From Janibacter hoylei PVAS-1 (GTDB lineage: Bacteria; Actinomycetota; Actinomycetes; Actinomycetales; Dermatophilaceae): 64,000 nt of DNA. Below, in pieces: positions 29,006 to 48,147 of this stretch. Every line of letters starts with the position of its first letter. Position 1 is the stretch's first letter. The translations under genes were made by a program, and so were the position numbers. Below the pieces are notes generated by a model. That model was not told where the DNA came from, searched no databases, and saw only the letters and a list, made by a program, of their open reading frames with translations. The stretch is taken from assembly GCF_000297495.1 (NCBI RefSeq), contig NZ_ALWX01000068.1, positions 1 to 64,000 of the forward strand, written 5' to 3'.

Positions 29006-29616
29006 AACGCTAGTACGTCGATGGTGCTGGGGCGAGTGCTGCCGCGCAGTTCGCCAGAGACGGCTCAGATGTAGGAGTGCATCGGGCGGCCATTATCGGT
29101 ACTGGGAGCTTTTGACCAACTCCGGTCTGCCTGCGCGAGGATGATCGCAGTCCGGGCTCGCCACCCTCACCCGATACGCGCACGCGGCGAGGACGAGCAA
29201 CGGGTGACAATTTGAGAACGGCAGCAGGGCACATGGAGTTCTGCCGCCTCGTGCAGTGCCAGATCTCCCAGTACCCGGGGCTGATGCCGACAGGTGGCGA
29301 GAGGGGCTGACCGCTGCTTGCAGGTGACTTTCGGAACGAGATCTGTCGGTCGGCGCTCATCTCGGCCCGGCTCAGGTCCTGCTCCTTTGTCGTGCCCTCC
29401 TCGGCGCGCGGCGCGGCTGCCACCGCTGCCCCTTCGTCGTGGTCTCCTTGGGTGGCTCGGGTGCCGGGACTTCCGTTCATGACCTGCGGCATGACGTCGC
29501 CTCCATTGAAGACGACGGTGACACGACGCGCACGCCGGTTTTTACCGCTGTAGCAACGGGCTCGCTCTCTGAGTGGGTAGCCATGTTTACCCTGTCTGCA
29601 CCGGAGCACAAACTGA

Positions 29617-29652
29617 GGGCCAGGATCCCCGATATTCCGGGGATCCTGGCCC
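29617..29652 (-). terminator. Perfect 14-bp-stem hairpin GGGCCAGGATCCCC-gatattcc-GGGGATCCTGGCCC, 19 bp downstream of the glnA stop.
   Basis: On the minus strand it is followed by TCAGTTTGTGC (a U-tract). Confidence 0.6.
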
Positions 29653-29670
29653 TTGTCATGCCTCCGAAGA

Positions 29671-31096
<1,426 letters not shown>

Positions 31097-31304
31097 ACCA
31101 TCCTCCTGGGGTGGGGCGGCAGGCCGCTCTGACCTGCCGCTTCAACTGTTGGTCAAACCCTAGGCGGGGCCGATTACCCGGCCATGACCCAAATGTTTCA
31201 CCCGTGTTACACGAGACCGAGATCCCATGTGGTGAGACCGATCCTAGCCAGCGGCCGGTCCGGGCGGCGGGAGCGTCCACGGCTGGTCCACATAGGCTGC
31301 CCCG

Positions 31305-31721
31305 GTGAGCAGCACCACGCCCCGCCCCCAGCCCGCCCCGGACGACGAAGGGAGCACCGCCCCCTTCGGCCGTCGCGTCGTCGCCCTCGTCGTCGACTGG
31401 GTGGCCTGCCTGCTGATCACCAACGGCCTCATCGGCCGCCTCGTCGAGCTGAGCCCCGAGGCCTTCTCCTTCGTCCCGCTCGGCCTGCTCTTCGTGCTCA
31501 ACCTCGTCGGCGTCACCCTCGGCGGGGCGACCTTCGGCCACCGCCTGCTCGGGCTTCGCGTCGCCGCCCTGCACGGCGGGTGGGTGACCCCCCTTCGCTC
31601 GGCGGTGCGGGCCGCGCTGCTGTGCCTCTTCATCCCCCCGCTCGTGACGGCGAAGGGGGACGGCCGCGGCCTCCACGACCTCGCCGCCGGCACCCGGGTG
31701 GTGCGCGCCACCGCTCCCTGA
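31305..31721 (+). CDS. RDD family membrane protein.
   Basis: Small 3-TM protein. It follows glnA as in mycobacteria. Confidence 0.6.
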   Translation: MSSTTPRPQPAPDDEGSTAPFGRRVVALVVDWVACLLITNGLIGRLVELSPEAFSFVPLGLLFVLNLVGVTLGGATFGHRLLGLRVAALHGGWVTPLRSAVRAALLCLFIPPLVTAKGDGRGLHDLAAGTRVVRATAP

Positions 31722-31788
31722 CCGTCGGGGCGGAGCATGAGGGCTTCCTCATCTTCACTTCACGTTCACCTCACAGCGGCCCTGCACG

Positions 31789-33031
31789 GTGGTGCCCGTG
31801 ACCACGACACCACGGCGCCGCATCGCCTTCTACTCCCACGACACCCAGGGGCTAGGCCACATCCGCCGCAACCTCGCCCTCGCCGGGGCGATCGTCGCGG
31901 CCGACCCGCGCACCGACGTCCTCGTGCTCACCGGCGCACCGCAGGCGACCTCGCTGCCGCTGCCGCCCCACACCGAGGTCATCACCGTGCCGACGGTGGC
32001 CAAGGACAGCGACGGGGGATACGCCGCCGCCACCTTCGCCATGGACCTCGACGCGCTGCTCACCCTGCGCTCCAACGTCATCACCACGGCACTCACGAGC
32101 TTCGCCCCCGATGTCGTCGTCGTGGACAAGGTCGCCCGCGGTCTCGACGGTGAGCTCGAGCAGGCGCTCGAGGCGCTGCACGCCGTCCGAGGGCACACCA
32201 CCGGCGCCCGCCCCCCGCGTCGTCCTCGGCCTGCGCGACATCCTTGACGACCCGCTGACCGCGGCCCGCGAGTGGCGCTCGTCCCGCACGACGCAGGCGA
32301 TCCGCGACCACTACGACGAGGTCTGGGTCTACGGCGACAGTGACGTCGTCGACGTCGTCGCCGACTACGAGCTGCCGCCCACCGTCGCCCGCCGGGTCCG
32401 CTACACCGGCTACCTCGTTGACGGGCGGTCCGAGGGGCTCATCCCGCCCCGCGACGAACCACCCGCCGGCCCCGTGCCGCGCCCCTACGTCCTGTGCATG
32501 GTCGGCGGCGGGCAGGACGGCTACGACACCGCCCTCGCCTTCGCCCACGCGACCTACCCGACCGGTCGGACCGGCGTCATCATCACCGGCCCGTACATGC
32601 AGCCCTCCCTGCGCCTGCGGCTGCAGGAGATCGCCGACGGCTGTGACGACCTCGTCGTGCGCGAGTTCGTCACCGACGCCGTCGAGCTCGTCGCCGGCGC
32701 CGACGCGGTCGTCTCCATGGGCGGCTACAACACTGTGTGCGAGGTGCTCACGGGCAACGTGCCCGCGCTCATCGTCCCGAGGGTGCGCCCCCGCCAGGAG
32801 CAGCTCGTGCGCGCCGACCGGCTGAGCGGTCTCGGCCTCGTCGACGCGCTGCACCCCGAACTCGTCACGCCGCACGCGCTCGCCGGCTGGCTCGAGCAGG
32901 CGACGGGGGCCCCCTTCGTCCGGGACCGGCAGACCATCGCGCTCGGCGGGCTGCGCCGGGTGCCCCACCTGCTCACCCGGCTCCACCGCACCGCCGCGAC
33001 CCACGCCGCCGACCTCGAGGAGGCCAGCTGA
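31789..33031 (+). CDS. GT-B glycosyltransferase (COG4671-like), with a C-run frameshift near 32205.
   Basis: N-terminal 'RIAFYSHDTQGLGHIRRNLALAGAI'. C-terminal half 'VVSMGGYNTVCEVL'. Confidence 0.6.
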
Positions 33032-34299
33032 TGTCCACGCCCACCCCGCGCGTCGGGTACGTGCTGAAGATGTACCCGCGCTTCTCCGAGACCTTCATCG
33101 TCCACGAGATCCTCCAGCAGGAGGCCCTCGGCACCCACGTCGAGATCTTCTCGCTGCGGCTGCCGATCGACGGGCGCTTCCACGAGCTGCTCGCCCGGGT
33201 GCAGGCGCCCGTCACCTACCTCTCCCGCGAGCACAAGGCCAGCCTCTTCTGGTCCGGGCTGCGGGCCGCAGCAGCCGAGGTGCCGCAGGTCGCCGACCAC
33301 CTCGACGAGCTGCTCGCCGCACCCGAGGACGTCGCCCTGGCCGCCGTCGAGCTTGCCGGCGCGGTGCGCCGCTCGGGGCTGGAGCACCTGCACGCGCACT
33401 TCGGCTCGATCGCCGCCGACGTCGCCCGGATCGCCGCGCGCCTCACGGGCATCACGTGGTCCTTCACGGCGCACGCCAAGGACATCTTCCACGAGGAGGT
33501 CGTGCCCGCCGAGCTGGCCACCAAGCTGCGCGAGGCGCACACGACCGTGACCGTGAGCGAGTACAACCGGCGCCACCTGCAGCGCGAGTTCGGCGCCGCC
33601 GCCGACCGGGTCACCCGGCTGTACAACAGCGTCGACCTGCAGGCCTTCCCCTTCGCGACGAAGGGGGAGACCGCCGGCCCCGACCGCATCGCCGCCGTCG
33701 GACGGCTCGTGGAGAAGAAGGGCTTCGGTGACCTGCTCACCGCCGTCGCCGAGCTCGTCGGCGCCGGCAGGGACGTGCACGTCGACCTCGTCGGCACCGG
33801 CCCCCTCGAGGCGACGCTGCGCGAGCGCATCGGCGAGCTCGGGCTGGGCGACGTCGTGACGATGCACGGCGCGCTCCCGCAGTCCCGGGTCCGTGAGATC
33901 GTCGCTGCCGCGGACGTCTTCGCCGCCCCGTGCGTCGTCGGCGCCGACGGCAACCGTGACGGCCTGCCCACCGTGCTCCTCGAGGCCCTGGCGCTCGGCA
34001 CGCCGTGCGTCTCGACCCCCGTCACCGGCATCCCCGAGATCGTGCGCCACGAGGAGACCGGGCTGCTCGCCCCCGAGAGCGACCCCGCGGCGCTCGGGCA
34101 GGCCATCGCCCGCGTCCTCGACGACCCCGAGACCGCGGCCGGGTGGGCTCGGGCCGCGCGCCGCCTGCTCGAGGCGGACTTCGACTTCCGCGACCACGCC
34201 CGGGAGCTGCAGGGGATCTTCGCCGCCGCCATCGCCTCCCAGGACGACCGCATTTACCTAGGGAAATGCGCATCCGAGGGCGGGAGCGCGGTCGCATGA
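33031..34299 (+). CDS. Glycosyltransferase family 1 (GT4-like).
   Basis: 'RLVEKKGF', 'LVGTGP', 'EGLPTVLLEALALGTPCVSTPVTGIPEIV' (the EX7E region). Start and stop overlap the neighbouring genes. The C-terminal 8 codons include the palindromic element. Confidence 0.8.
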   Translation: MSTPTPRVGYVLKMYPRFSETFIVHEILQQEALGTHVEIFSLRLPIDGRFHELLARVQAPVTYLSREHKASLFWSGLRAAAAEVPQVADHLDELLAAPEDVALAAVELAGAVRRSGLEHLHAHFGSIAADVARIAARLTGITWSFTAHAKDIFHEEVVPAELATKLREAHTTVTVSEYNRRHLQREFGAAADRVTRLYNSVDLQAFPFATKGETAGPDRIAAVGRLVEKKGFGDLLTAVAELVGAGRDVHVDLVGTGPLEATLRERIGELGLGDVVTMHGALPQSRVREIVAAADVFAAPCVVGADGNRDGLPTVLLEALALGTPCVSTPVTGIPEIVRHEETGLLAPESDPAALGQAIARVLDDPETAAGWARAARRLLEADFDFRDHARELQGIFAAAIASQDDRIYLGKCASEGGSAVA

Positions 34300-35498
34300 G
34301 GCGCGTCGCCTACGTGTGCGCCGACCCCGGCGTCCCCGTCTTCGGGCACAAGGGAGCCTCCGTCCACGTGCAGGCCGTCGTGCGCGAGCTCCTCCGCCGC
34401 GGCGGCGAGGTGCACCTCATCGCCGCCCGCGTCGGGGGCGACCTGCCCCGCGGCCTCGATGGTGTCGTCCTGCACGAGCTGCCCCGCACCACCGGGGAGC
34501 CTGGCGCCGAGCGTGAGGCGTCGGCGCGGCGGTCCGCGTACGCGGCGGCCGACCTGCTCGAGCAGCTGCACCGGGAGGACCCGCTCGATCTCGTCTACGA
34601 GCGCTACTCGCTGTGGTCGCCGGCGGCCATGGCCTGGGCCCGGCAGCGGGCCGTCGCCAGCGTGCTCGAGGTCAACGCGCCGCTCGTCGACGAGCAGGCC
34701 GAGCACCGGGTGCTCGCCGACCGCGATGGCGCCGTAGGCATCGCGACGGCCGCCTTCGACGCCGCAGGGTCGGTCGTCACCGTCTCCGCGCCCGTCGCCC
34801 GCTGGGTCACCGAGCGCACCGACAACACCGCCGTGCACGTCGTGCCCAACGGCGTGGACACGCGCTTCATCCGACCTGCAGCCCACAGCGGGCGAAGGGG
34901 GGAGCAGCCCCCCTTCGTCATCGGCTTCGTCGGCACGCTCAAGCCCTGGCACGGGGTGGAGGTGCTCGTCGAGGCCTTCGCCCGGGTGGCGCGTACCGAC
35001 CCGCACGCACGCCTGCGGCTCGTCGGCGACGGCCCGCGGCGCACGGGGCTGGCCGAGTTGGCTCGCGAGCTGGGCGTCGTCGACCGCGTCGACCTCGTCG
35101 GCGCGGTGGCCCCCGAGGACATGCCCGCCGAGCTCGCCGCGATGGACATCGCCGTGGCGCCCTACCCGCGGCTGCCCGACTTCTACTTCTCGCCGCTCAA
35201 GCTCTACGAGTACCTCGCCGCCGGGCTCCCCGTCGTCGCCAGCGACATCGGTCCTTGCCCCGGCATCCTCGACGACGGTGGCCTCGGCGTCCTCGTGCGG
35301 CCCGGTGACCCGGCCGAGCTGGCCGCCGCTCTCGCCGGCCTGCGCCGGGACCCGACGATGCGCGCCGAGCTCGGCCGGGCCGGGCGCCGGGCCGCGGAGG
35401 ACCGGCACGACTGGAGCCTGGTCGTCGCGCGCATCCTCGACACGGTCCCCGCCCCGCGCACCTCGCTCGCCGACGACCTGTGGGGGCAGACCGCGTGA
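34296..35498 (+). CDS. Glycosyltransferase family 1 (GT4-like).
   Basis: 'FVGTLKPWHGVEVLVEAF', 'LVGDGP', 'PLKLYEYLAAGLPVVASDIG'. ATGA overlap with the upstream GT. Confidence 0.8.
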   Translation: MRRVAYVCADPGVPVFGHKGASVHVQAVVRELLRRGGEVHLIAARVGGDLPRGLDGVVLHELPRTTGEPGAEREASARRSAYAAADLLEQLHREDPLDLVYERYSLWSPAAMAWARQRAVASVLEVNAPLVDEQAEHRVLADRDGAVGIATAAFDAAGSVVTVSAPVARWVTERTDNTAVHVVPNGVDTRFIRPAAHSGRRGEQPPFVIGFVGTLKPWHGVEVLVEAFARVARTDPHARLRLVGDGPRRTGLAELARELGVVDRVDLVGAVAPEDMPAELAAMDIAVAPYPRLPDFYFSPLKLYEYLAAGLPVVASDIGPCPGILDDGGLGVLVRPGDPAELAAALAGLRRDPTMRAELGRAGRRAAEDRHDWSLVVARILDTVPAPRTSLADDLWGQTA

Positions 35499-37354
35499 GC
35501 GACTCACCCCTGCGCAAGGTGCGCCGGCCCGAGGGTCTGCGCGAGGCGCTGCCCGGGCTGCGGCGTCTCGTGCCGCACGTGCGACCGCACCTGCGCCGGC
35601 AGCGGACCCTCATCGCCGGCGGCGGCGCCGCGATGGCACTCGAGGTCGTCATGCGCCTGCTCGAGCCGTGGCCGCTGAAGTTCGTCATCGACGGCGTCAT
35701 CGGCCACCTCGGCGCCGACCTGCACCAGGGCCAGCCCGACGACCTGCAGCAGGTCCTCGTGCTCGCCTGCCTCGGCCTGCTCGTCGTCGTCCTGCTCCGG
35801 GCCGCAGCCAGCTACGGCATGACCGTCTGCTTCGCGCTCGCGGGCAACCGGCTGCTCACGGCCGTGCGCGCCGATGCCTTCGCGCACCTGCAGCGCCTGT
35901 CGCTGTCCTTCCACGACCGGGCCCGCACGGGTGACCTCGTCCAGCGCATCACGAGCGACGTCGGCCGGCTCAAGGAGGTGGCCGTGACCGCCGCGCTCCC
36001 GCTCGCCGGCAACGTCCTCACCCTCGTCGCGATGCTCGTCGTCGTCTTCGTGCTCGACTGGCAGCTCGCGCTGTGCATGCTCGTCGTCTTCCCCGTCTTC
36101 GTCCTCACCGGACGCAGCGCCACCCGCCGCATCCACACCGTCTCGCGCAAGCAGCGCAAGGCCGAGGGCCACCTCGCGACCCTCGCCACCGAGACCCTCG
36201 GGTCGATGAAGGTCGTGCAGGCCTACACGCTCGAGAGCGAGATGCAGAGCCGCTTCGCGTCGGACAACGTCAAGACGCTCAAGGACGGGGTCAAGGCGAA
36301 GAAGCTCTCCGCCGGGCTCGAGCGGTCCACCGACGTGCTCGTCGGCCTGGCGACGGCCCTCGTCCTCTACGTCGGGGCCCAGCGCGTGCTCGCCGGCGCG
36401 CTCACTCCCGGTGAGCTCGTCGTCTTCATCACCTATCTCAAGGCGGCCTTCAAGCCGATGCGCGATCTCGCGAAGTACACCGGGCGCATCGCCCAGGCCG
36501 CGGCCTCCGCAGAGCGCGTCGTCGACCTGCTCGACACCGAGCCCACCGTGCGCGACGCCTCGTGGGCCACACCCGGCCGGCGGGTCGCCGGCCACGTCGA
36601 GCTCGAGGACGTCTGGCTCTCGTACGTGCCGGGTCACCCGGTGCTGCGTGGCGTGAGCCTGCGGATCCACCCGGGGGAGCGGGTCGCCGTCGTCGGCCCC
36701 TCCGGCGCGGGCAAGTCCTCGCTCGCCGGGCTGCTGCTGCGCATGCACGACCCGGACTCCGGGACGGTGCGCCTCGACGGGTGGGACCTGCAGGACCTCA
36801 CGGTCCACGGCGTGCGCAGCCAGGTCGCGGTGGTGCTCCAGGAGAGCCTGCTCTTCGCCACGACGATCCGCGACAACATCGCGATGGGCGCTCCCGAGGG
36901 GGCGGCCGAGGTCACCGAGGAGCGGGTCGTCGCCGCCGCTCGTGCCGCCGGTGCCCACGACTTCATCACTGCCCTGCCACAGGGCTACGACACGGTCGTC
37001 TCCGAGCGGGGGAGCACGCTCTCGGGAGGGCAGCGGCAACGCATCGCGATCGCTCGGGCGGTCGTCCGCGACGCGCCCGTCGTCATCCTCGACGAGGCGA
37101 CAGTCGGCCTCGACGGCGAGACCGAGGTCGAGGTCACCGCGGCGCTCGACCGGCTGACGGCCGGTCGCACGACGATCGTCATCACCCACGACCTCGACGC
37201 GGCCCGGTCCGCCGACCGCATCGTCTGGGTCGACGCCGGTCGCGTCACCGACGTCGGCCGCCCCGACGAGGTGCTGGCCCGTCATGCCGGCGAGCTCGAC
37301 GACGCCCTCCGGCCACGCCACGAAGGGGGTGTCGCCAGTGCTGTCGGCAGCTGA
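35495..37354 (+). CDS. ABC transporter permease/ATP-binding fusion (MsbA-like exporter).
   Basis: 6 TM. Walker A 'GPSGAGKSS', signature 'LSGGQRQRIAIARA', Walker B 'VVILDEAT'. Confidence 0.85.
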   Translation: MSDSPLRKVRRPEGLREALPGLRRLVPHVRPHLRRQRTLIAGGGAAMALEVVMRLLEPWPLKFVIDGVIGHLGADLHQGQPDDLQQVLVLACLGLLVVVLLRAAASYGMTVCFALAGNRLLTAVRADAFAHLQRLSLSFHDRARTGDLVQRITSDVGRLKEVAVTAALPLAGNVLTLVAMLVVVFVLDWQLALCMLVVFPVFVLTGRSATRRIHTVSRKQRKAEGHLATLATETLGSMKVVQAYTLESEMQSRFASDNVKTLKDGVKAKKLSAGLERSTDVLVGLATALVLYVGAQRVLAGALTPGELVVFITYLKAAFKPMRDLAKYTGRIAQAAASAERVVDLLDTEPTVRDASWATPGRRVAGHVELEDVWLSYVPGHPVLRGVSLRIHPGERVAVVGPSGAGKSSLAGLLLRMHDPDSGTVRLDGWDLQDLTVHGVRSQVAVVLQESLLFATTIRDNIAMGAPEGAAEVTEERVVAAARAAGAHDFITALPQGYDTVVSERGSTLSGGQRQRIAIARAVVRDAPVVILDEATVGLDGETEVEVTAALDRLTAGRTTIVITHDLDAARSADRIVWVDAGRVTDVGRPDEVLARHAGELDDALRPRHEGGVASAVGS

Positions 37355-38561
37355 GGCCCACGAGCGGTTGGTCGTCGCCGACCTCGGCCTGCCGGGTCTG
37401 CCCGGGCTGCTCGAGCCCGCCGTGCTCGCTGAGCAGCTGGGCGGCCCGACGACGAGGTCGTACCTGCGCTACAAGCCCGGTACGAGCGCCGTCGCCCTGC
37501 TCGACGTCGCCGGCCGGCCCGTGATCGCGCACGCCTGGGGCAACGCCGCGCCCGACAAACGGGGCAAGGCCCTGCGCCACGTGACTCCGGGCGAGGTGCT
37601 GCTCGATGCCCCCGAGGTGGGGCTGCTCGTCGTCGACGCACGCACCGATCGCCGCCTGCCCGCGCTCCGTCGCCTCGTCCGCACGGGTGACCTCGCCGAC
37701 TGGCTCTCCGGGGCCGGGCATCCGGTCGCCACCGACGCGAGCCCGCAGACCCTGGCCCACAAGCCGGCCCGGCGATGGGTCGGTCGGCTGCCGCGAGCCG
37801 AGGGAGCGGGCCACGTGGTGCTGCGCGCGTACGCCCGCCGCGGGTACGACGACGCGCTCGCCGCCCACGCACGCGTCCGGCCGGACCATGCGCCCTCCCT
37901 GCGACTGCCGCGCGTGCTCGCCACCCACCGGCGCGGCCTCATCGCCCTCGAGCACCTGCCCGGTCGCACCCTTGACAGCGACGTCTCCGTCGCGGCCGTA
38001 CGGCGCCTGGGAGCCTGCCTCGGCGAGCTGCACGCCACCGGACGTGCCGACGTCGCCCCGGAGCGGGCCATGGACGGCCCCGGTGTCGACGCCCTCGCGC
38101 CGGTGCTCGGCGCGCACGTCGACCTCGTACACCACGTGGCCGAGGTGGCGCGGGGCTCCCTTCGTACCGGGCCGGGAGCCCTGCTGCACGGCGACCTCTC
38201 GCTCGACCAGGTCGTCGCGGACGGCCACGACCTCGGGCTCATCGACCTCGACCGGGTCCGTCTCGGCAACCCGCTCGACGACGTGGCGAGCCTGCTCGCG
38301 GCCGCTGCCCTGACCCGGCTCGCCACGCCCGGCGCCGAGGGCGCTGCCGGACTCGTGGCCCGCCTCCGCGAGCCCCTGCTCGCCGGCCACGCCAGCACCT
38401 GGTCGGGGCCGGCCACCGACGACCTGGGCCCACGCACCGCACTCGCCCTGCTGTCGAGGGCAGCGGAGCCCTTCAGGTCCGGCCACCCCCGCTGGCCCGA
38501 CCTGACGGCCGATCTCATCGCGCTCGCTGCGGAGCAGGCCGGTCTGCAGGTGGCGGCATGA
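37338..38561 (+). CDS. Aminoglycoside-phosphotransferase (APH)-fold kinase family protein.
   Basis: 'LLHGDLSLDQVV...GLIDLD' matches the HGD...D catalytic/Mg motifs. The substrate is unknown. Confidence 0.6.
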   Translation: MLSAAEAHERLVVADLGLPGLPGLLEPAVLAEQLGGPTTRSYLRYKPGTSAVALLDVAGRPVIAHAWGNAAPDKRGKALRHVTPGEVLLDAPEVGLLVVDARTDRRLPALRRLVRTGDLADWLSGAGHPVATDASPQTLAHKPARRWVGRLPRAEGAGHVVLRAYARRGYDDALAAHARVRPDHAPSLRLPRVLATHRRGLIALEHLPGRTLDSDVSVAAVRRLGACLGELHATGRADVAPERAMDGPGVDALAPVLGAHVDLVHHVAEVARGSLRTGPGALLHGDLSLDQVVADGHDLGLIDLDRVRLGNPLDDVASLLAAAALTRLATPGAEGAAGLVARLREPLLAGHASTWSGPATDDLGPRTALALLSRAAEPFRSGHPRWPDLTADLIALAAEQAGLQVAA

Positions 38562-39634
38562 CCCCCTTCGACGAGGTCCGGCGCACGGTGACCGGCCACG
38601 GTCTCGAGCTCGTCCGGGCTCACCCGCGCCGTGATCGCCTGCACCTCGACCTACGGGGCCCCGACCGGCAGCGGGTCATCGGTCAGTGGATCGACGATGC
38701 CACCGAGGCCACGCGGGTCGCCGACGCCACCCCCGGCCGCGTCGAGCGCCTCGGGTCCCGCCTGGTGCTCCAGCACGACGGGGCCGACCGGCGACTGCCT
38801 GCTCTGGCCGACCTCGTCGCAGGCGGGGCCGAGCTCGTCGTGCACCGCCCCGAGCGGCGCGCGGTCGTGCGGTACCAGCGCGGCGATGGGTACGTCTACA
38901 CCAAGGTCGTGCGCCCAAGCCGCACCGCCGAGCTCGTCCGCCGGGTGCGCGCAGCCGCCGCCGTCCCCGGCCTCTCGGCCCCCGAGGTCACCCAGTGGGA
39001 CGAGGCCGGCGGCACGATCGTGCTGACCACCCTGCCCGGGCAGACCCTGCACGACCTGCTGACAGGGGTTGTCCCTGCGGTCGTGGCCACGGAGGTGGGA
39101 CGAGCTGTGCGCACCCTGCACTCGGCGGCGACCGCGCCGGACGGGACGACCACCCACGACCTCGCAGCCGAGGTGGACGCCACGCGTGCGCTGCTCGATC
39201 TCGCGCGCACGCATCGCGCCCTGCAGCCCCGAGAGGCGCTCGTGGTGGACCGGCGGATCGCCGCGGCCGCGGCCACGATCGCCGCCCTCGCCCGACCGGC
39301 TGCACCGTCGCTGCTGCACCGCGACCTCCACGACAAGCAGCTGCTCGTCGACGGCGCATCGATCGGGATGCTCGACGTCGACACCCTGGGTCTCGGGGAC
39401 CCGGCCCTCGACCTCGGCAACCTCCTGGCCCACCTCGACCTGCGGGTGCGCCAGGGCTGGACGCAGCGGGAGACCGCGGCTGCGGTTGAGCAGGGGGTGC
39501 TCGACGGGTACGTGCCCGACGACCGGACCCGCGCCGCGACCGCCGGCTACCGCGCCCTCGCGGCGGCGCGGCTGGAGGCGCTCTACGCCTTCCGTCCGGG
39601 GGACCTGCCGGGCGGGGGTCAGCCCGCGAAGTAG
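38558..39634 (+). CDS. APH-fold kinase family protein (second paralog).
   Basis: 'LLHRDLHDKQLLVD...GMLDVD'. ATGA overlap with the upstream kinase. Confidence 0.6.
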   Translation: MTPFDEVRRTVTGHGLELVRAHPRRDRLHLDLRGPDRQRVIGQWIDDATEATRVADATPGRVERLGSRLVLQHDGADRRLPALADLVAGGAELVVHRPERRAVVRYQRGDGYVYTKVVRPSRTAELVRRVRAAAAVPGLSAPEVTQWDEAGGTIVLTTLPGQTLHDLLTGVVPAVVATEVGRAVRTLHSAATAPDGTTTHDLAAEVDATRALLDLARTHRALQPREALVVDRRIAAAAATIAALARPAAPSLLHRDLHDKQLLVDGASIGMLDVDTLGLGDPALDLGNLLAHLDLRVRQGWTQRETAAAVEQGVLDGYVPDDRTRAATAGYRALAAARLEALYAFRPGDLPGGGQPAK

Positions 39635-40896
39635 GTGCGCGCCACGCGCGCCAGGTCGAGCAGGTCGCTCGTGCCGGCGAGCTCGCGCGCCGAGTGCATC
39701 GACAGGATCGGGATGCCGACGTCGACGGTGCGGATCCCCAGGCGGGTCGCGGTGATCGGGCCGATCGTCGACCCGCACGGCACGGTGTTGTTGGAGACGA
39801 AGTCCTGGCTGTGCACACCGGACGCCTCGCACCAGCCGCGCCAGGCCGCCGCGCCGACACCATCGCTCGCGTAGCGCTGGTTGGCGTTGAGCTTGAGGAT
39901 CGGGCCGGACCCGAGCACGGGCCGCACGTGCGGGTCGTGCTTGCCGGGGTAGTTGGGGTGCACCGAGTGCCCGACGTCGCTCGAGATGCACCACGACGAC
40001 GCGAGCGCCCGCAGCCGGTCGCCGCGGTCGGCGCCGAGGGAGATGCCGATGCGCTCGAGCACCTCCTCGAGGAAGGGGCCGCCCGCGCCGGTGCGCGAGG
40101 CCGAGCCGACCTCCTCGTGGTCGAAGACGGCGAGCATCGGGATGTGGTCGGCGCCCAGGTCGTCGCCGACCTCGGCCAGCGCCACCGTGCCCGCGTGCGC
40201 GCTCGCGAGGTCGTCGAGACGACCCGCGGCGAAGAAGACGTCGTCCCGGCCGAAGACGGCACCACGGGCGGAGTCGGCCGTCACGAGGTCGTATCCGCGC
40301 ACCCGGGCCGCGTCGACACCGACGCGGTCGGCGAGCTCGGCGATCAGGTCCGCTGACTCGGCGGCACCCACGCCCCACACGGGCTGGGTGTGGACCTGTC
40401 GGTCGAGGGTGAGGCGCTCGTTGACCTCGCGGTCGAGGTGGATCGCCAGCTGGGGCAGCCGCAGCAGCGGGCCGGAGTCGGCGAGCACCTCGGTGCCGTC
40501 CTCGAGGACGAGTCGACCGGCCAGCCGCAGTTCACGGTCCAGCCAGGAGTTGACCAGCGGCCCGCCGTAGACCTCGACGCCGGCCTGCAGCCAGCCGAGG
40601 TGGCCGGTGGTCGGCTGGGGCTTGAGCTTGAAGCCGGGGGAGTCGCTGTGGGCGCCGAAGACGCGCACCGGGGTCGTCGGGCCGGCGCTCGTCGGCACGG
40701 CCCACGCGATGACCGCGCCCTCGCGCACGACGACGTAGCGACCCGGCTCCTGCGGCCAGGCGTCGCTCTCGTGGAGGGAGGTGAAGCCGGCGTCGAGCAG
40801 CCGGCGGGCCACCTCGGCGGCCGCGTGATAGCTCGAGGGGGAGGCGTCGACGAAGTCGGCGAGGTCCTCGGCGTGGGTGGTCGTGGCTGCGGGCAC
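39619..40896 (-). CDS. M18 family aminopeptidase.
   Basis: 'FGAHSDSPGFKLKP', 'VGHSVHPNYP'. 425 aa, intact. Confidence 0.85.
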   Translation of the reverse strand: MPAATTTHAEDLADFVDASPSSYHAAAEVARRLLDAGFTSLHESDAWPQEPGRYVVVREGAVIAWAVPTSAGPTTPVRVFGAHSDSPGFKLKPQPTTGHLGWLQAGVEVYGGPLVNSWLDRELRLAGRLVLEDGTEVLADSGPLLRLPQLAIHLDREVNERLTLDRQVHTQPVWGVGAAESADLIAELADRVGVDAARVRGYDLVTADSARGAVFGRDDVFFAAGRLDDLASAHAGTVALAEVGDDLGADHIPMLAVFDHEEVGSASRTGAGGPFLEEVLERIGISLGADRGDRLRALASSWCISSDVGHSVHPNYPGKHDPHVRPVLGSGPILKLNANQRYASDGVGAAAWRGWCEASGVHSQDFVSNNTVPCGSTIGPITATRLGIRTVDVGIPILSMHSARELAGTSDLLDLARVARTYFAG

Positions 40897-40953: not shown

Positions 40954-41677
40954 TCAGCGGCCGCGCAGGGCGCTGCGGTTCATCCGGGCGCGCGACGGGT
41001 CAACCCCGGCGGGGACACCCTGACGGATCCCGGGGAGGGACTTCAGCCGCTTGTTGACGACCGACATCTCCTCCTTCGACAGCTCCGGGCGCAGCTTGGT
41101 GAGGGTCATGCGGATCTTGCGGGGGGCCAGCTCGCCCTCGCCGCTGCCGACGATGAAGGTGTGGACCGGGACGCCGGGGGGCGACGCGGGCGACCTTCTT
41201 GGTCTCCTTGGCGAAGAGCTTGTCGACGCGGTGCTTGGGGCCCTCGCCGAGCAGGACGATGCCCGGGCGGCCGAGGGCGCGGAAGACGACGGCGGCCGTG
41301 GCGATCTCGCTCGGCTTGGTGGCGTCGGCGGCGACCGGCTCCTGGTCGTAGTACCAGCCGCGGCGCAGCGCGGACAGGCCGCCGATGGAGGCACCGCGCT
41401 GGCCCTCCATCTGGGCGAAGGCGGCCCGCTCACCCCGTCGCGACAGCACGATCATCGCGGCGAGCGCGGCGAAGGGGAGCGCGACGAGCAGCGAGGCGAT
41501 GACGTGCCCGAAGATCAGGCCGATGAGCGCACCGACCGCCAGCACGACGACGAAGCCGAGCAGCATCCACAGGCCGACCTGCGGGTCGAGCTGCTTGACC
41601 GTCCGGTAGACGGAGGCGATGCGCTTGAAGGGGTTCTCGCGCTTCGGCTTGGAGGGGGTGTCGCTCTTGCTGGCCAT
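40954..41677 (-). CDS. DUF4191 membrane protein, with a G-run frameshift near 41185.
   Basis: N-terminal 'MASKSDTPSKPKRENPFKRI...' plus 2 TM. The C-terminal half is in another frame. It is a conserved neighbour of lipA in actinomycetes. Confidence 0.5.
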
Positions 41678-41713: not shown

Positions 41714-42770
41714 TCAGCCGTCGGTGCCGGTGGCCGGCTGGTCGAGGATCGCCTGGGCTCGGCTCTTGGCGACGAGCGTCGCCGCCTCCTGGCGGGCCGG
41801 CTCGTCGATGGCCGCCTCGAGGTGCGACAGGTGCTCCGGGACCGCGCGGCCCCACTTGCGCATCGCCGTCGCGTAGAGGCGACCGGCCCGGTAGCTCGAG
41901 CGCACGAGCGGCCCGGCCATGACGCCCTTGAAGCCGATCGCCTCGGCGAGCTCGCTCCAGTGGACGAACTCCTCGGGCTTGACCCACCGGTCGATCGGGT
42001 GGTGCAGCTTGGAGGGGCGCAGGTACTGGGTGATCGTGAGGATGTCGCAGCCCGCCTCGTGCAGGTCGCGGATCGCCTCCTCGATCTCGTGGTCCTCCTC
42101 ACCCATCCCGAGGATGAGGTTGGACTTGGTGACCAGCTCGGCCTCGCGGGCCATGGAGAGCACCTTGAGGGACTTCTCGTAGGTGAAGGCCGGGCGGATC
42201 TTGCGGAAGATGCGCGGCACGGTCTCGAGGTTGTGGGCGAAGACCTCGGGGCGGGCGTCGAAGACCTGGCCGACGAGCTCGGGCTTGGCCCCGAAGTCGG
42301 GCGGGAGGATCTCGACACCGGTCGTGGGGTTGAGCTCGTGGATCGCGCGGATCGTCTCCGCGTAGAGCGCGGCGGCACCGTCGGGCTGGTCGTCGCGGGC
42401 GACGCCGGTGACGGTGGAGTAGCGCAGGCCCATCTCGCGGACGGACTCGGCGACGCGGCGCGGCTCGTCCATGTCGAGCGAGGTGGGGCGGGCCGGTCGC
42501 GATGTCGCAGAAGTCGCAGCGCCGGGTGCACACGTCACCGCCGATGAGGAAGGTCGCCTCGCGGTCCTCCCAGCACTCGAAGATGTTGGGGCAGCCCGCC
42601 TCCTGGCAGACCGTGTGCAGGCCAGCGCCACTGACGCGGCCACGCATCTGGTTGTACTCGGGGCCCATCTTGGCGGTGGTCCGGATCCACTCCGGCTTGC
42701 GCTCGATGGGGGTCTCGGCGTTGCGCGCCTCGACGCGCAGCAGACGACGTCCTTCGGGTGCGACGGTCAC
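41714..42770 (-). CDS. lipA: Lipoyl synthase, with a homopolymer frameshift near 42490.
   Basis: Radical-SAM '[13 protein letters not shown]' plus 'CPNIFECW'. Removing one C from 'accggcccgcccc' restores '...[11 protein letters not shown]...'. Confidence 0.9.
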
Positions 42771-42823: not shown

Positions 42824-43504
42824 CTACGCCTCGGCGGGGACGGCTCCTGCAGCCCCCTTCGTCAGCGGCAGGTCCTGCGTCATGACCTCGAGCAGGTGTG
42901 CCTTGGCCGAAGGGAGGATGTCGGCGACGGTGATGTCACGACCGGTCTCGAGGGCGAGGGTCGAGACGTCGGCATCGGGGATCCCGCACGGGACGATCGT
43001 CTGCGTCCACGACAGGTCGCAGTCGACGTTGAGGCTGAAGCCGTGCATCGCCACGTCGCGGGAGACGCGGATGCCGATCTGGCCGAGCTTGCGGTCGCGG
43101 GTCTCGTCGGTGCCGGGGACCCAGATGCCCGAGCGGCCCGGGACGCGGGTGGCGGTGACGCCGACGTCGGCGGCCACGCGGATCATCATCTCCTCGAGCC
43201 GGCGCACGTGGGCGATGACGTCGCGGCGACCCGGGAGGTGCGCGATGGGGTAGCCGACGAGCTGGCCGGGGCCGTGCCAGGTGATCTTGCCGCCCCGGTC
43301 GACGTCGATGACGGGGGTGCCGTCCATCGGTCGCTCGTGGGGCTCGGTGCGCTTGCCGGCGGTGTAGACGGCGGTGTGCTCGAGCAGCAGGGTCGTGTCC
43401 TCGAGCTCACCGGCGACGACCGCGGCGTGCACCTGCTTCTGGTGCTCCCAGGCGGTCAGGTAGTCGACGGTGTCGGGGGCGAAGCCCAGCTCCTCGAAAC
43501 GCAT
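42824..43504 (-). CDS. lipB: Octanoyltransferase (lipoyl(octanoyl) transferase).
   Basis: '[14 protein letters not shown]'. The catalytic Cys region is '[14 protein letters not shown]'. Confidence 0.9.
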
Positions 43505-46166: not shown

Positions 46167-48017
46167 TCAGGCCTCGAAGCGACCTTCCTCGAGACGGGCC
46201 TTGACCGTCCCGAGGAAGCGGGCCGCGTCGGCGCCGTCGACCACGCGGTGGTCGTAGGTGAGCGCGAGGTACATCATCGACCGGATCGCCAGCGTCTCGC
46301 CGCCGTCGTCTGTCGTGATGACGACCGGGCGACGCACGATGGCGCCGGTGCCGAGCATCGCGACCTGCGGCTGGTTGAGGATCGGGGTGTCGAAGAGTGC
46401 ACCCCGGCTGCCGGTGTTGGTGATGGTGAAGGTCCCACCCGACAGGTCGTCCGGCGTGATCTTGTTGTTGCGCGTGCGGTCGGCGACGTCCGCGATGGCC
46501 CGGGCGAGGCCGGCGACGTTGAGGTCACCGGCGTTCTTCACGACCGGCGTGAGCAGGCCGCGCTCGGTGTCGACCGCGATCGAGAGGTTTTCCTGACTGT
46601 GGTAGACGATCTCGTCGCCCTCGACGCTGGCGTTGACGCCCGGGTGCGCCTTCAGGGCCTCGGCCGTGGCCTGGGCGATGAAGGGCAGGAAGGAGAGCTT
46701 CGTGCCCTCGCGCTGGGCGAACTCGGCCTTCGCGGCGTCGCGCACGCGAGCCACCTTGGTCATGTCGACCTCGACGACCGTCGTCAGCTGGGCGGAGACC
46801 CGCAGCGACTCGACCATCCGCTCGGCGATGACCTTGCGCAGGCGGGTCATCTTCTCGCGGGTGCCGCGCTTGGACTGCGGGACGTTGGACTCCAGACCGG
46901 CCGGGACGCCCGCGGGGGCCGCAGCAGCGGGGGCGCCAGCCGGAGCGGCGGCCGGAGCAGCAGCCTCCTGCGGCTGGTTCTTCGCCTTGGCCGCCTGGAG
47001 GACGTCCTGCTTGCGGATGCGGCCACCGATGCCGGTGCCCGTCACCTGGGCGAGGTCGATGCCGTTGTCGGCAGCGAGCTTGCGCACGAGCGGGGTGACG
47101 TAGGCGGCGGCGTCACCACCGGAGGCGGCGGGCACCTCCTGCTTCGGCTCGGCCTTGGGCTCCTCGGCCTTCGGCTCCTCCTTGGGGGCTTCCTGCTTCG
47201 GCTCCTCCTTGGGGGCTTCCTGCTTCGGCTCCTCCTTGGGGGCCTCCTGCTTCGGCTCCTCCTTGGGCTCCTCGGCCTTCGGCTCCTCCTTGGGCTCCTC
47301 GGCCTTCGGCTCCTCCGTGGGCGCCTCCTGCTTCGGCTCTTCGGCCGGGGCGGACTCGGTCGAGCCGCCACCGGAGCCACCGACGATCGCGAGGTCGGCG
47401 CCGACCTCGACCGTCTCGTCCTCCTGGACGAGGATCTTGGTCAGGGTGCCCGCGACGGGGGAAGGGATCTCGGTGTCGACCTTGTCGGTCGAGACCTCGA
47501 GCAGCGGCTCGTCGACCTCGACGGTGTCGCCCTCGGCCTTGAGCCACCGCGAGACGGTGCCCTCGGTCACGGACTCGCCGAGAGCCGGCATCGCCACGGT
47601 CGTGCCGTCGCCGTCACCGGAGGAGGACTCGGCGGCCGGGGCCTCCTCGGCCTGCGGCTCCTCGGCGGGAGCCTCCTCGGCCTCGGCGGCGGGCTCGTCG
47701 GCCTGCGGCTCCTCGGCGGGGGTCTCCTCCGCAGGAGCCTCCTGCGCGTCGTCGCCGGAGTCGGAGGAGGCCGGTGCGTCACCGTCACCGATGACGGCGA
47801 GGTCGGCGCCGACCTCGACGGTCTCGTCCTCCTCGACGAGGATCTCCTGGATCGTGCCCGCGACGGGCGAAGGGATCTCAGTGTCGACCTTGTCGGTCGA
47901 GACCTCGAGCAGCGGCTCGTCGACCTCGACCGTGTCGCCAACATTCTTGAGCCATCGCGTCACGGTGCCCTCGGTCACGGACTCGCCCAGTGCCGGCATG
48001 GTCACCCGCTCAGACAT
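46167..48017 (-). CDS. sucB: Dihydrolipoamide acyltransferase (E2 component) with two lipoyl domains.
   Basis: Two '[13 protein letters not shown]' lipoyl-lysine boxes, a PSBD, and catalytic '[14 protein letters not shown]'. A long PKEEPKQEA-type linker repeat is present. Confidence 0.9.
47155..47340 (-). repeat. Coding tandem repeat (27-bp unit, ~6 copies) encoding the (PKEEPKQEA)n linker of E2.
   Basis: cttcggctcctccttgggggcttcctg repeated. Confidence 0.8.
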
Positions 48018-48147
48018 GCGCCTCTGCTCCTTCTATCGAGATGGGATACGTCACAGACTCTCACGAGTCGGTGGGCTGGTGTCCACAGGGCCCACGCTCG
48101 CGCGTGGCACGGATCGGCGTCCGGCCGGGCCCGTCGGCCGAGCGGTC

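Follow-up and report, generated by a model that had tools for sequence, protein, structure and literature searches.

A horizontally exchanged operon of three glycosyltransferases, an ABC exporter and two kinases in Janibacter hoylei, possibly for a small anionic glycoconjugate

Introduction

The msbA2 operon of Sinorhizobium meliloti (SMb21188-SMb21191) encodes an acyltransferase, two glycosyltransferases and the exporter MsbA2; it is activated by the response regulator ChvI, and its proposed role is the synthesis and export of a polysaccharide that has yet to be named (PMC3687685). Here we describe a locus of the actinomycete Janibacter hoylei PVAS-1 that resembles it in being a small operon of glycosyltransferases and an MsbA-like exporter, in having no identified product and in its association with two-component control. 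The locus lies in a stretch of 64,000 nucleotides, referred to below as the window (contig NZ_ALWX01000068.1 of assembly GCF_000297495.1, positions 1 to 64,000). It consists of an operator followed by six genes that we call GTA, GT4a, GT4b, ABC, KinF and KinG, for three glycosyltransferases, an ABC exporter and two kinases of the aminoglycoside-phosphotransferase (APH) fold. Glycosyltransferase clusters with an exporter are already familiar; what distinguishes this one is the fixed combination with a co-evolving kinase pair and a portable operator.

Results

Six overlapping genes form a single cassette

Since the window has a G+C content of about 72%, genes were called from the bias in G+C at third codon positions (GC3 frame analysis) together with lists of open reading frames (ORFs). 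These gave unbroken coding on the + strand from about 31790 to 39634, a span of 7.85 kb in place of the 9 kb estimated in an earlier note on this DNA. The gene content proposed there, namely three GT-B glycosyltransferases, a fused ABC exporter and two APH-fold kinases, was borne out by Pfam and ORF analysis (Table 1). The flanks that it named (glnA-RDD on one side, DUF4191-lipA-lipB on the other) were likewise found by Pfam, and the cluster indeed contains no polyketide synthase or nonribosomal peptide synthetase gene. The genes are translationally coupled, with junctions that are, in order, TGATG (1 nt), ATGA, GTGA, a 17-nt overlap of ABC and KinF, and ATGA. The expectation of ATGA or GTGA overlaps at every junction was therefore nearly correct, but it does not cover the TGATG between GTA and GT4a, nor the ABC/KinF overlap, which is 17 nt from the RefSeq start of KinF at 37338 and 71 nt from the alternative ATG. 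KinG converges on the neighbouring M18 aminopeptidase gene with an overlap of 16 nt. A search of 28-46 kb against Rfam (E ≤ 0.1) returned no match and thus gave no sign of a riboswitch or other RNA leader.

The cassette is collinear across phyla and exchanged horizontally

A profile of KinG homologues was scanned against one genome per species and the candidate stretches were checked by tblastn, which confirmed 333 of them as KinG relatives. We retrieved 79 loci with 10-kb flanks and compared 80 loci by tblastn with all proteins of the cluster and its flanks. The order GTA-GT4a-GT4b-ABC-KinF-KinG was collinear in 52 of the 80, and about 14 more loci were interrupted by contig ends in a way compatible with the same order. 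At two loci the ABC gene was not in its usual slot: it lay downstream of KinG in locus L022, and no ABC match was recorded in L023. Overlapping junctions are typical, with median gaps of -4 to -23 nt in the 35 loci in which all six genes passed strict coverage criteria. The host taxa include Micrococcales, Propionibacteriales, Acidimicrobiia, Kineosporia, Allonocardiopsis, Geodermatophilaceae, Phycisphaerales (Planctomycetota) and Anaerolineae/Chloroflexota, and a partial locus (ABC-KinF-KinG) was present in a metagenome-assembled genome (MAG) labelled 'Deltaproteobacteria'.

A full cassette, with the kinases fused into a protein of 740 aa, lies beside a transposase gene on plasmid p296221 of Paracoccus aestuarii. 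A tblastn search for KinG on plasmids at E ≤ 1e-8 found none, the Paracoccus fusion being too divergent for that threshold; plasmid carriage therefore appears to be rare. Among 1.84 billion representative proteins (50% identity level), the KinG family has 1,491 representatives at E ≤ 1e-30, and many of these are 720-880 aa long and contain two matches to the KinG profile, the best one lying in the C-terminal half, as expected of KinF-KinG fusions. In one Acidimicrobiia MAG (L062, 11203-12249), a tandem second KinG paralogue with 37% identity directly follows KinG.

The genes upstream of the cassette are unrelated between loci, encoding for example a tRNA synthetase, AlkZ, MFS, FtsK or GH43 proteins. 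The copy in Terrabacter, which belongs to the same family as Janibacter, has identities of 54% for ABC and 39% for KinG, as against 70% and 47% for the copies in Nocardioides or Occultella. Because the Terrabacter copy is the more distant, the phylogeny of the cassette departs from that of the species. The cassette is a self-contained operon that is exchanged horizontally; collinear in many phyla and set in unrelated genomic contexts, it is not a local peculiarity.

Empty and inverted sites define the mobile unit

The glnA-RDD ... M18-DUF4191-lipA context is confined to Janibacter loci (L002-L005, L035 and L089), more distant relatives of Janibacter having the order lipA-DUF4191-glnA. A metagenome scan with DUF4191 yielded two Janibacter-like contigs from close relatives (L087 and L091) with the order lipB-lipA-DUF4191-M18-RDD-glnA, in which all six genes are missing. 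In L087 (GlnA 100% and LipB 95% identical), the spacer between the convergent M18 and RDD genes measures 82 nt and contains a hairpin. These two contigs back the view that the cluster was inserted into the glnA-RDD / DUF4191-lipA-lipB region; the empty sites may represent the ancestral state or deletions.

In Janibacter limosus and a related Janibacter MAG (L002, L003; 3139-11085), the same M18 and RDD genes enclose the cassette in the opposite orientation, its operator having been turned round with it. RDD thus adjoins KinG, not GTA, in J. limosus, and adjoins M18 at the empty sites. The M18 gene is missing from the cassette-bearing L035 and from all non-Janibacter loci. From the empty sites and the inverted copy we conclude that M18 belongs to the ancestral site and that the moving unit is the operator plus six genes; the aminopeptidase is ruled out as a member of the cluster by L087, L091 and L035. 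Whichever way the cassette is oriented, the C-terminal tail of KinG, which is not conserved, extends into the 3' end of the convergent neighbour.

The cassette carries a phased operator and is linked to a two-component system

The 76-nt spacer between RDD and GTA is occupied by the operator. It contains a 7-2-7 palindrome, ATGAGGGCTTCCTCAT, at 31737-31752, and TCAY half-sites in exact 11-bp phase at 31749, 31760 and 31771, the latter two being TCAC. A -10-like hexamer, CACGGT, follows at 31785-31790, 7 nt before the GTG start at 31798. A promoter without a -35 element and with its -10-like hexamer this close to the start codon predicts a leaderless mRNA. A sigma-70 promoter scan gave no match, its consensus being ill-suited to high-GC actinomycetes. 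Nowhere else in the window does the operator pattern occur, and the number of matches expected by chance is 0.

Across loci, the consensus of the operator is ATGAGaG..tCTCAT-N7-TCAY-N7-TCAY-N10-cAnnnT, the palindrome being ATGAGRG-N2-CYCTCAT. The palindrome alone is found 5' of GTA in 37 of 55 loci. The full pattern has 38 matches in 2 x 1.27 Mb, 34 of them immediately 5' of GTA; three others lie 5' of a histidine kinase/response regulator operon directly adjoining the cassette (L033, L037 and L062) and one lies 5' of a lone KinG homologue (L032). This last gene (L032:9799-11107) has the full operator in front and is accompanied by neither glycosyltransferases nor exporter, and an orthologue of the cassette-linked response regulator is encoded about 6 kb upstream of it.

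In six loci, a response regulator of the OmpR family is encoded next to the cassette or to a homologue of KinG. Those of Brachybacterium, Galactobacter, Cellulomonas, a Propionibacteriaceae MAG and an Acidimicrobiia MAG are 61-78% identical across orders, and in Paracoccus a 40% identical regulator/kinase pair is encoded divergently upstream of the cassette. The best NCBIfam match of the linked response regulator is TIGR01387 (CopR/CusR/CzcR), with 211.8 bits and hence below the cut-off of 279.2 for membership; that of the histidine kinase is TIGR01386 (201.9 bits, cut-off 292.6). The CusR box is itself a 7-2-7 palindrome, ATGACAA-N2-TTGTCAT, a likeness that provides a lead and not a test. Phased half-sites over the -35 position, combined with autoregulation of the two-component system, match the classical picture of activation by a response regulator. 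In the divergent region between the two-component genes and GTA on the P. aestuarii plasmid (L081:8850-8875) we noted direct repeats, TTCTAAT-N4-TTCTAAT, with the same 11-bp spacing as the actinobacterial operator and a different half-site.

The statement that the cluster has no regulator thus holds for genes within the window, but overlooks the conserved operator of response-regulator type and the dedicated two-component system in other taxa. A subgroup of three loci (L020, L031 and L046) lacks the TCAY operator and has another upstream motif, GGTAC...GACCATYGGACRRCTKYCGG, common to all three. A gene for a NarL-type regulator lies directly upstream of the cassette in L020 and about 1.6 kb downstream of it in L046, which suggests that the regulatory input has been swapped in this subgroup.

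Glycosyltransferases and exporter belong to broad families

The predicted model of GTA (predicted local distance difference test, pLDDT, 92.8) has as its nearest folds GT1 enzymes acting on small or lipophilic acceptors. The structural matches are led by CalG1 (score 27.2), YojK (26.2), GtfA (26.0) and a sterol glucosyltransferase (24.9), followed by MurG (22.7) and the monogalactosyldiacylglycerol synthase MGD1 (21.8). Its match to the macrolide-glycosyltransferase subfamily TIGR01426 (E 5e-10) is below the cut-off. Many homologues have been named 'predicted glycosyltransferase' by JGI and one 'Mlr3248 protein', names that agree with the COG4671-like type suggested in the earlier note; our literature search found no paper that mentions COG4671 or mlr3248.

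Both other glycosyltransferases are members of family GT4, with scores above the cut-offs for Glycos_transf_1 (123.3 bits, 1e-35) and Glyco_transf_4 (33.3 bits) in GT4a, and for Glycos_transf_1 (98.7 bits) and Glyco_transf_4 (51.2 bits, 2e-13) in GT4b, which also matches Glyco_trans_1_4 (2e-31). The nearest solved structures are PimB', BshA and PimA for GT4a, and MshA and PimA for GT4b. At the level of NCBIfam, GT4a scores 188 bits against EpsE (cut-off 400), and the TuaC and TuaH models reach 83 and 51 bits on GT4a/GT4b, against a cut-off of 550.

The exporter matches Pfam ABC_membrane (2e-50) and ABC_tran (9e-33). It falls outside MsbA by both NCBIfam models, TIGR02203 and NF008381 (416 bits, cut-off 602; 338.8 bits, cut-off 867), and its matches in the Protein Data Bank (PDB) are the halves of ABCB1/4 together with Sav1866, TmrAB and MsbA, these last three at about 1e-84 to 1e-93. 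By sequence it is best described as a predicted generic half-transporter of the ABCB type. A weak Pfam match to a GT4-conflict family had raised the idea of a defence system; PADLOC gave nothing specific, only generic ABC-ATPase matches (mad3 and mad8) to the exporter and none for the glycosyltransferases or kinases.

KinF and KinG as a probable functional pair

Both kinases are members of the APH / choline-kinase-like group, and the catalytic motifs are invariant in both. In KinF (Pfam APH, 1.7e-10), all 59 orthologues compared keep HGD[FL]SxDQ and D[LW]D; at the position of the beta3 lysine, 42 of them have Arg and 17 have Lys. KinG has an additional conserved N-terminal domain of about 90 aa and is rich in invariant Arg, His and Lys, as might be expected of an enzyme with an anionic substrate.

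The two are paralogues, but only distant ones: BLASTP aligns them with an E value of 6e-07, and the similarity is limited to the catalytic loop. Since they are nevertheless always adjacent and often fused, they very likely share a substrate or form a complex. Among the best structural matches of KinG are APH(3'), viomycin kinase, amicoumacin kinase and macrolide phosphotransferases. The proteins fall outside the maltokinase family (Mak/Pep2), and maltokinase is not the nearest fold; they also fall outside the WaaP / Kdo-kinase family (PF06293), and WaaP is not the nearest fold. Against LxmK (NCBIfam NF038156), KinG scores 48.3 and KinF 30.1 bits, below the cut-off of 315, and no LxmK partner or precursor gene is present at the cluster.

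Accessory genes and related modules

In 17 loci the cassette has a gene for UDP-glucose 6-dehydrogenase (Ugd) as its neighbour; in 14 of these the gene comes directly after KinG, and in three it lies divergently before GTA. This suggests that UDP-glucuronic acid is one of the donors used in those lineages. Directly upstream of GTA, and on the same strand, both of the Phycisphaerales loci with sequence on that side have a gene of the phosphate-selective porin O/P family (L036:1748-3304 and L080:1096-2400; Pfam 37 bits). At a single locus, in an Acidimicrobiales MAG (L060:11087-12781), KinG is followed after 55 nt, again on the same strand, by the gene of a PhoD-like phosphatase that has DUF7800 as its N-terminal domain.

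Homologues of GTA occur on 275 plasmid or chromid records, mostly of Rhizobium and Sinorhizobium. The megaplasmid of Ruegeria TM1040 (L082) and the chromid pRCCGE525c of Rhizobium jaguaris (L085) encode homologous GTA (38-40%) and GT4a (34-36%) in the same order. Unlike the cassette, these alphaproteobacterial variants, which are uncharacterised too, have no kinases. In Ruegeria the series is GTA, GT4, GT4, histidine phosphatase, GTA-like glycosyltransferase, deacetylase and methyltransferase, the exporter and kinases having been replaced; in Rhizobium it is GTA, GT4, GTA-like glycosyltransferase, a 904-aa ABC protein and a cyclic-nucleotide-binding (cNMP-binding) protein.

Homopolymer errors account for the split GTA gene

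In the window, the six-C homopolymer at 32211-32216 has one C too many, and GTA is broken there into two ORFs (31789-32247 and 32111-33031), an apparent pseudogenisation of the first glycosyltransferase that the earlier note had overlooked. Comparison with an Illumina draft of the same strain (L001, PIPF01000007.1) showed 0 mismatches across 21 kb and five +1 insertions in the window, all in G/C homopolymers, at 29711, 32216, 40914, 41181 and 42492. Four of them frameshift genes (glnA, GTA, DUF4191 and lipA), and the remaining one falls between M18 and DUF4191. In the draft GTA is intact, with 410 aa, as it is in at least 30 other J. hoylei sequences; these rule out a pseudogene, and since the draft is of the same strain, the frameshift is a long-read homopolymer error of the assembly. 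Further genes in the window may be affected by similar insertions. The assemblies also differ by 27 nt (9 aa) at about 47240-47270, within the gene for an E2 acyltransferase (46167-48032, - strand), reflecting the copy number of a PKEEPKQEA-type linker repeat in this 2-oxoacid dehydrogenase E2 subunit.

Table 1. Coordinates of the cassette and of the genes flanking its insertion site (window positions)
Feature	Position	Strand	Product and basis
Cassette promoter/operator	31737..31790	+	Direct sequence reading
GTA, GT1/GT28-like GT-B glycosyltransferase	31798..33031	+	True product 410 aa; Pfam Glyco_tran_28_C on 32111-33031
GT4a, retaining GT4 glycosyltransferase resembling WcaL/EpsE	33031..34299	+	422 aa; Pfam Glycos_transf_1 and Glyco_transf_4
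GT4b, second GT4 glycosyltransferase	34296..35498	+	400 aa; Pfam Glycos_transf_1 and Glyco_transf_4
ABC exporter, fused half-transporter (transmembrane domain, TMD, and nucleotide-binding domain, NBD), ABCB / type IV (MsbA/Sav1866-like)	35495..37354 (ORF alternative 35480)	+	619 aa; Pfam ABC_membrane and ABC_tran
KinF, APH-fold kinase	37338..38561 (RefSeq start)	+	407 aa (425 aa from ATG 37284); Pfam APH
KinG, APH-fold kinase	38558..39634	+	358 aa; Pfam APH
glnA, left flank	29477-31141	-	
RDD-family membrane protein, left flank of insertion site, outside cassette	31305..31721	+	Pfam RDD
M18 aminopeptidase, right flank of insertion site, outside cassette	39619..40896	-	Pfam Peptidase_M18; NCBIfam NF002759, 562 bits (cut-off 356)
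DUF4191	41000-41677	-	
lipA	41714-42643	-	
lipB	42824-43504	-	

Discussion

A putative pathway for a phosphorylated and exported glycoconjugate

The results presented above are consistent with the regulated assembly of a small anionic glycoconjugate in the cytoplasm, its double phosphorylation and its export by the ABC protein, a proposal to which we give roughly even credence. Synthesis, phosphorylation and export of a small glycoconjugate, as first suggested for this DNA, remains the best fit, and it is equally true that the product is not evident, none that has been characterised having been found in NCBIfam, the PDB or the literature. In the predicted order of reactions, GTA, as an inverting enzyme like those of GT1/GT28, would begin by glycosylating, on the cytoplasmic side of the membrane, an acceptor that is either lipophilic or small. 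The retaining enzymes GT4a and GT4b would then attach two further sugars, one of which is probably glucuronic acid in many lineages, supplied through the co-encoded Ugd. KinF and KinG, acting as a dedicated ATP-dependent pair on the glycan, would each attach one phosphate, and the half-transporter, resembling MsbA and PglK, would flip or export the anionic product to the cell envelope. Expression would be switched on by an OmpR-family response regulator binding four phased TCAY half-sites in place of a -35 region.

Several observations weigh against this proposal. Every functional family match in NCBIfam is below its curated cut-off, and a sequence search of the PDB found no informative relatives, and so no close solved structure, for GTA or the kinases. 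The cassette encodes no priming phosphoglycosyl transferase, no acyltransferase and no lipid-synthesis gene, which makes a lipid acceptor a guess. Compared with assembled glycans, small molecules and the anomeric position of free sugars are the more frequent targets of APH-fold kinases, and KinF may not be a conventional kinase, given the Arg at the beta3 Lys position in most orthologues. Ugd is linked to the cassette in only about a quarter of the loci. Finally, no response regulator gene is encoded in the 64-kb window, so that regulation in J. hoylei is an extrapolation from other taxa. A search of the literature by family names, and by phosphoglycolipid and genus, returned no relevant paper.

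Alternative readings of the cassette

In one alternative, the kinases act before the glycosyltransferases, so as to supply a phosphorylated acceptor or a sugar-1-phosphate. What is exported would then be soluble, a glycoside or an oligosaccharide, for instance one that serves as an osmolyte or a thiol-like cofactor or that resembles a periplasmic glucan. The models for such a route would be MshA/MshA2, GpgS/GpgP, sucrose-phosphate synthase and maltokinase/GlgE. Indeed, among the nearest solved relatives of the GT4 enzymes are MshA, BshA and sucrose-phosphate synthase, whose acceptors are phosphorylated or small, and the order of phosphatase and deacetylase in Ruegeria TM1040 parallels the chemistry that leads from N-acetylglucosaminyl-inositol phosphate (GlcNAc-Ins-P) to glucosaminyl-inositol (GlcN-Ins). 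However, the actinobacterial cassette has neither a nucleotidyltransferase nor a phosphatase, and an exporter of the ABCB type is not normally needed for soluble cytoplasmic solutes. Kinases that are fused, conserved together with the exporter and encoded downstream of it also fit late tailoring better, and we regard this alternative as rather unlikely.

Somewhat less probable still is a teichuronic-acid-like or other anionic polysaccharide of the cell wall or the extracellular space, its chains capped or terminated by the kinases as by WbdD and its synthesis induced by phosphate limitation or metal stress. The Ugd linkage in 17 loci would agree with such a polymer, as would the weak similarity of GT4a and GT4b to TuaC and TuaH and the position of the linked two-component system nearest to the CopR/CusR/CzcR subfamily. 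The porin gene of the OprO/P family in both Phycisphaerales loci and the PhoD-like phosphatase gene in the Acidimicrobiales MAG are anecdotal hints of the same kind, and the 11-bp-phased (G/C)TTCAC-like repeats of the operator resemble actinobacterial PHO boxes. Yet the TuaC and TuaH scores are far under their cut-off and each of the phosphate hints comes from one or two loci, while spending phosphate on the product would be an odd response to phosphate starvation. Moreover, there is no gene in the cassette for a polymerase, a chain-length regulator, an LCP ligase or a component of Wzx/Wzy or Wzm/Wzt, and three single-domain glycosyltransferases with an MsbA-type exporter suit a short, defined glycan.

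The relatives of the individual proteins could also be taken to indicate detoxification or self-resistance, in which a xenobiotic or antibiotic is glycosylated (as by Mgt or OleD), phosphorylated (as by APH or Mph) and pumped out. GTA matches TIGR01426, and its closest structures are GT1 enzymes whose substrates are antibiotics or other small molecules, the structural matches of KinG include antibiotic kinases, and the exporter resembles Sav1866, TmrAB and ABCB1. We nevertheless think this quite improbable, in that a fixed collinear set of six genes across phyla is rare for resistance determinants, two GT4 enzymes and a linked Ugd favour the building of a glycan over the tagging of a drug, neither KinF nor KinG reaches the cut-off of any resistance family, and a dedicated two-component system that controls its own expression and has a putative periplasmic sensor is more in keeping with the physiology of the envelope. 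Barely credible is a ribosomally synthesised and post-translationally modified peptide that is phosphorylated on Ser/Thr by LxmK/TvaE-like kinases, glycosylated and exported: LxmK is the only or best NCBIfam match of both kinases and the exporter family includes bacteriocin exporters, but the LxmK scores are far under the cut-off, there is no lyase partner or peptidase domain, a precursor gene would find no room in a 76-nt spacer filled by the operator or at the overlapping internal junctions, and no conserved small ORF is evident, ORFs of less than 90 aa not having been clustered systematically.

For the cassette, the comparative data already give a testable regulatory model, comprising operator, response regulator and autoregulation, and Janibacter offers a natural pair of strains with and without the cassette within one genus. 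Identification of the product would annotate thousands of genes that are labelled only 'glycosyltransferase' or 'phosphotransferase', and would add a substrate class to the APH kinases, which are often mis-annotated as aminoglycoside resistance. It could also bring to light a glycoconjugate of the envelope that is under regulation in Actinomycetota, among them J. hoylei, an opportunistic pathogen.

Comparison with known systems

The msbA2 operon is an analogue of the cassette and not its homologue: the corresponding region of pSymB (930-952 kb, L083) matches ABC only, at 29% identity, and has no similarity to GTA, GT4a, GT4b or the kinases. The teichuronic acid (tua) operon of Bacillus subtilis shares with the cassette GT4 enzymes linked to Ugd and a regulator of the OmpR/PhoB family acting on phased direct repeats, but it has no kinases and no ABCB exporter, and its polymerase and flippase are of other families. 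Assembly of the O8/O9a polymannose of Escherichia coli (WbdA/B/C and WbdD) likewise combines GT4 enzymes, a kinase fold that phosphorylates a glycan and ABC export. In that system, however, the exporter is Wzm/Wzt, with TMD and NBD on separate proteins where the cassette has a fused MsbA-like protein, and WbdD is a single kinase-methyltransferase with a coiled-coil ruler. Its acceptor, moreover, is undecaprenyl diphosphate primed by WecA, whereas the cassette encodes no priming enzyme.

Inner-core assembly of lipopolysaccharide (LPS) by WaaG, WaaP/WaaY and MsbA offers a further parallel, with GT-B enzymes at the cytoplasmic face, two dedicated enzymes of the kinase fold able in principle to phosphorylate the glycan, and an ABCB half-transporter; indeed, MsbA is the best-scoring NCBIfam family of the exporter. 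It differs in that most hosts of the cassette are monoderm Actinomycetota without lipid A, and in that the cassette has no heptosyl or 3-deoxy-D-manno-octulosonic acid (Kdo) transferases. The cassette might conceivably represent an undescribed envelope pathway of monoderms built on the logic of the LPS core, in which a glycolipid of the inner leaflet would receive two phosphates and be flipped by the MsbA-like protein under its own CopR/CusR-like two-component switch, a tentative idea that we consider unlikely as a whole. If it were true, the cell surface would gain negative charge upon an envelope, metal or phosphate signal and, because the cassette carries its own operator, this counterpart of LPS-core assembly would act as a plug-in after transfer across phyla.

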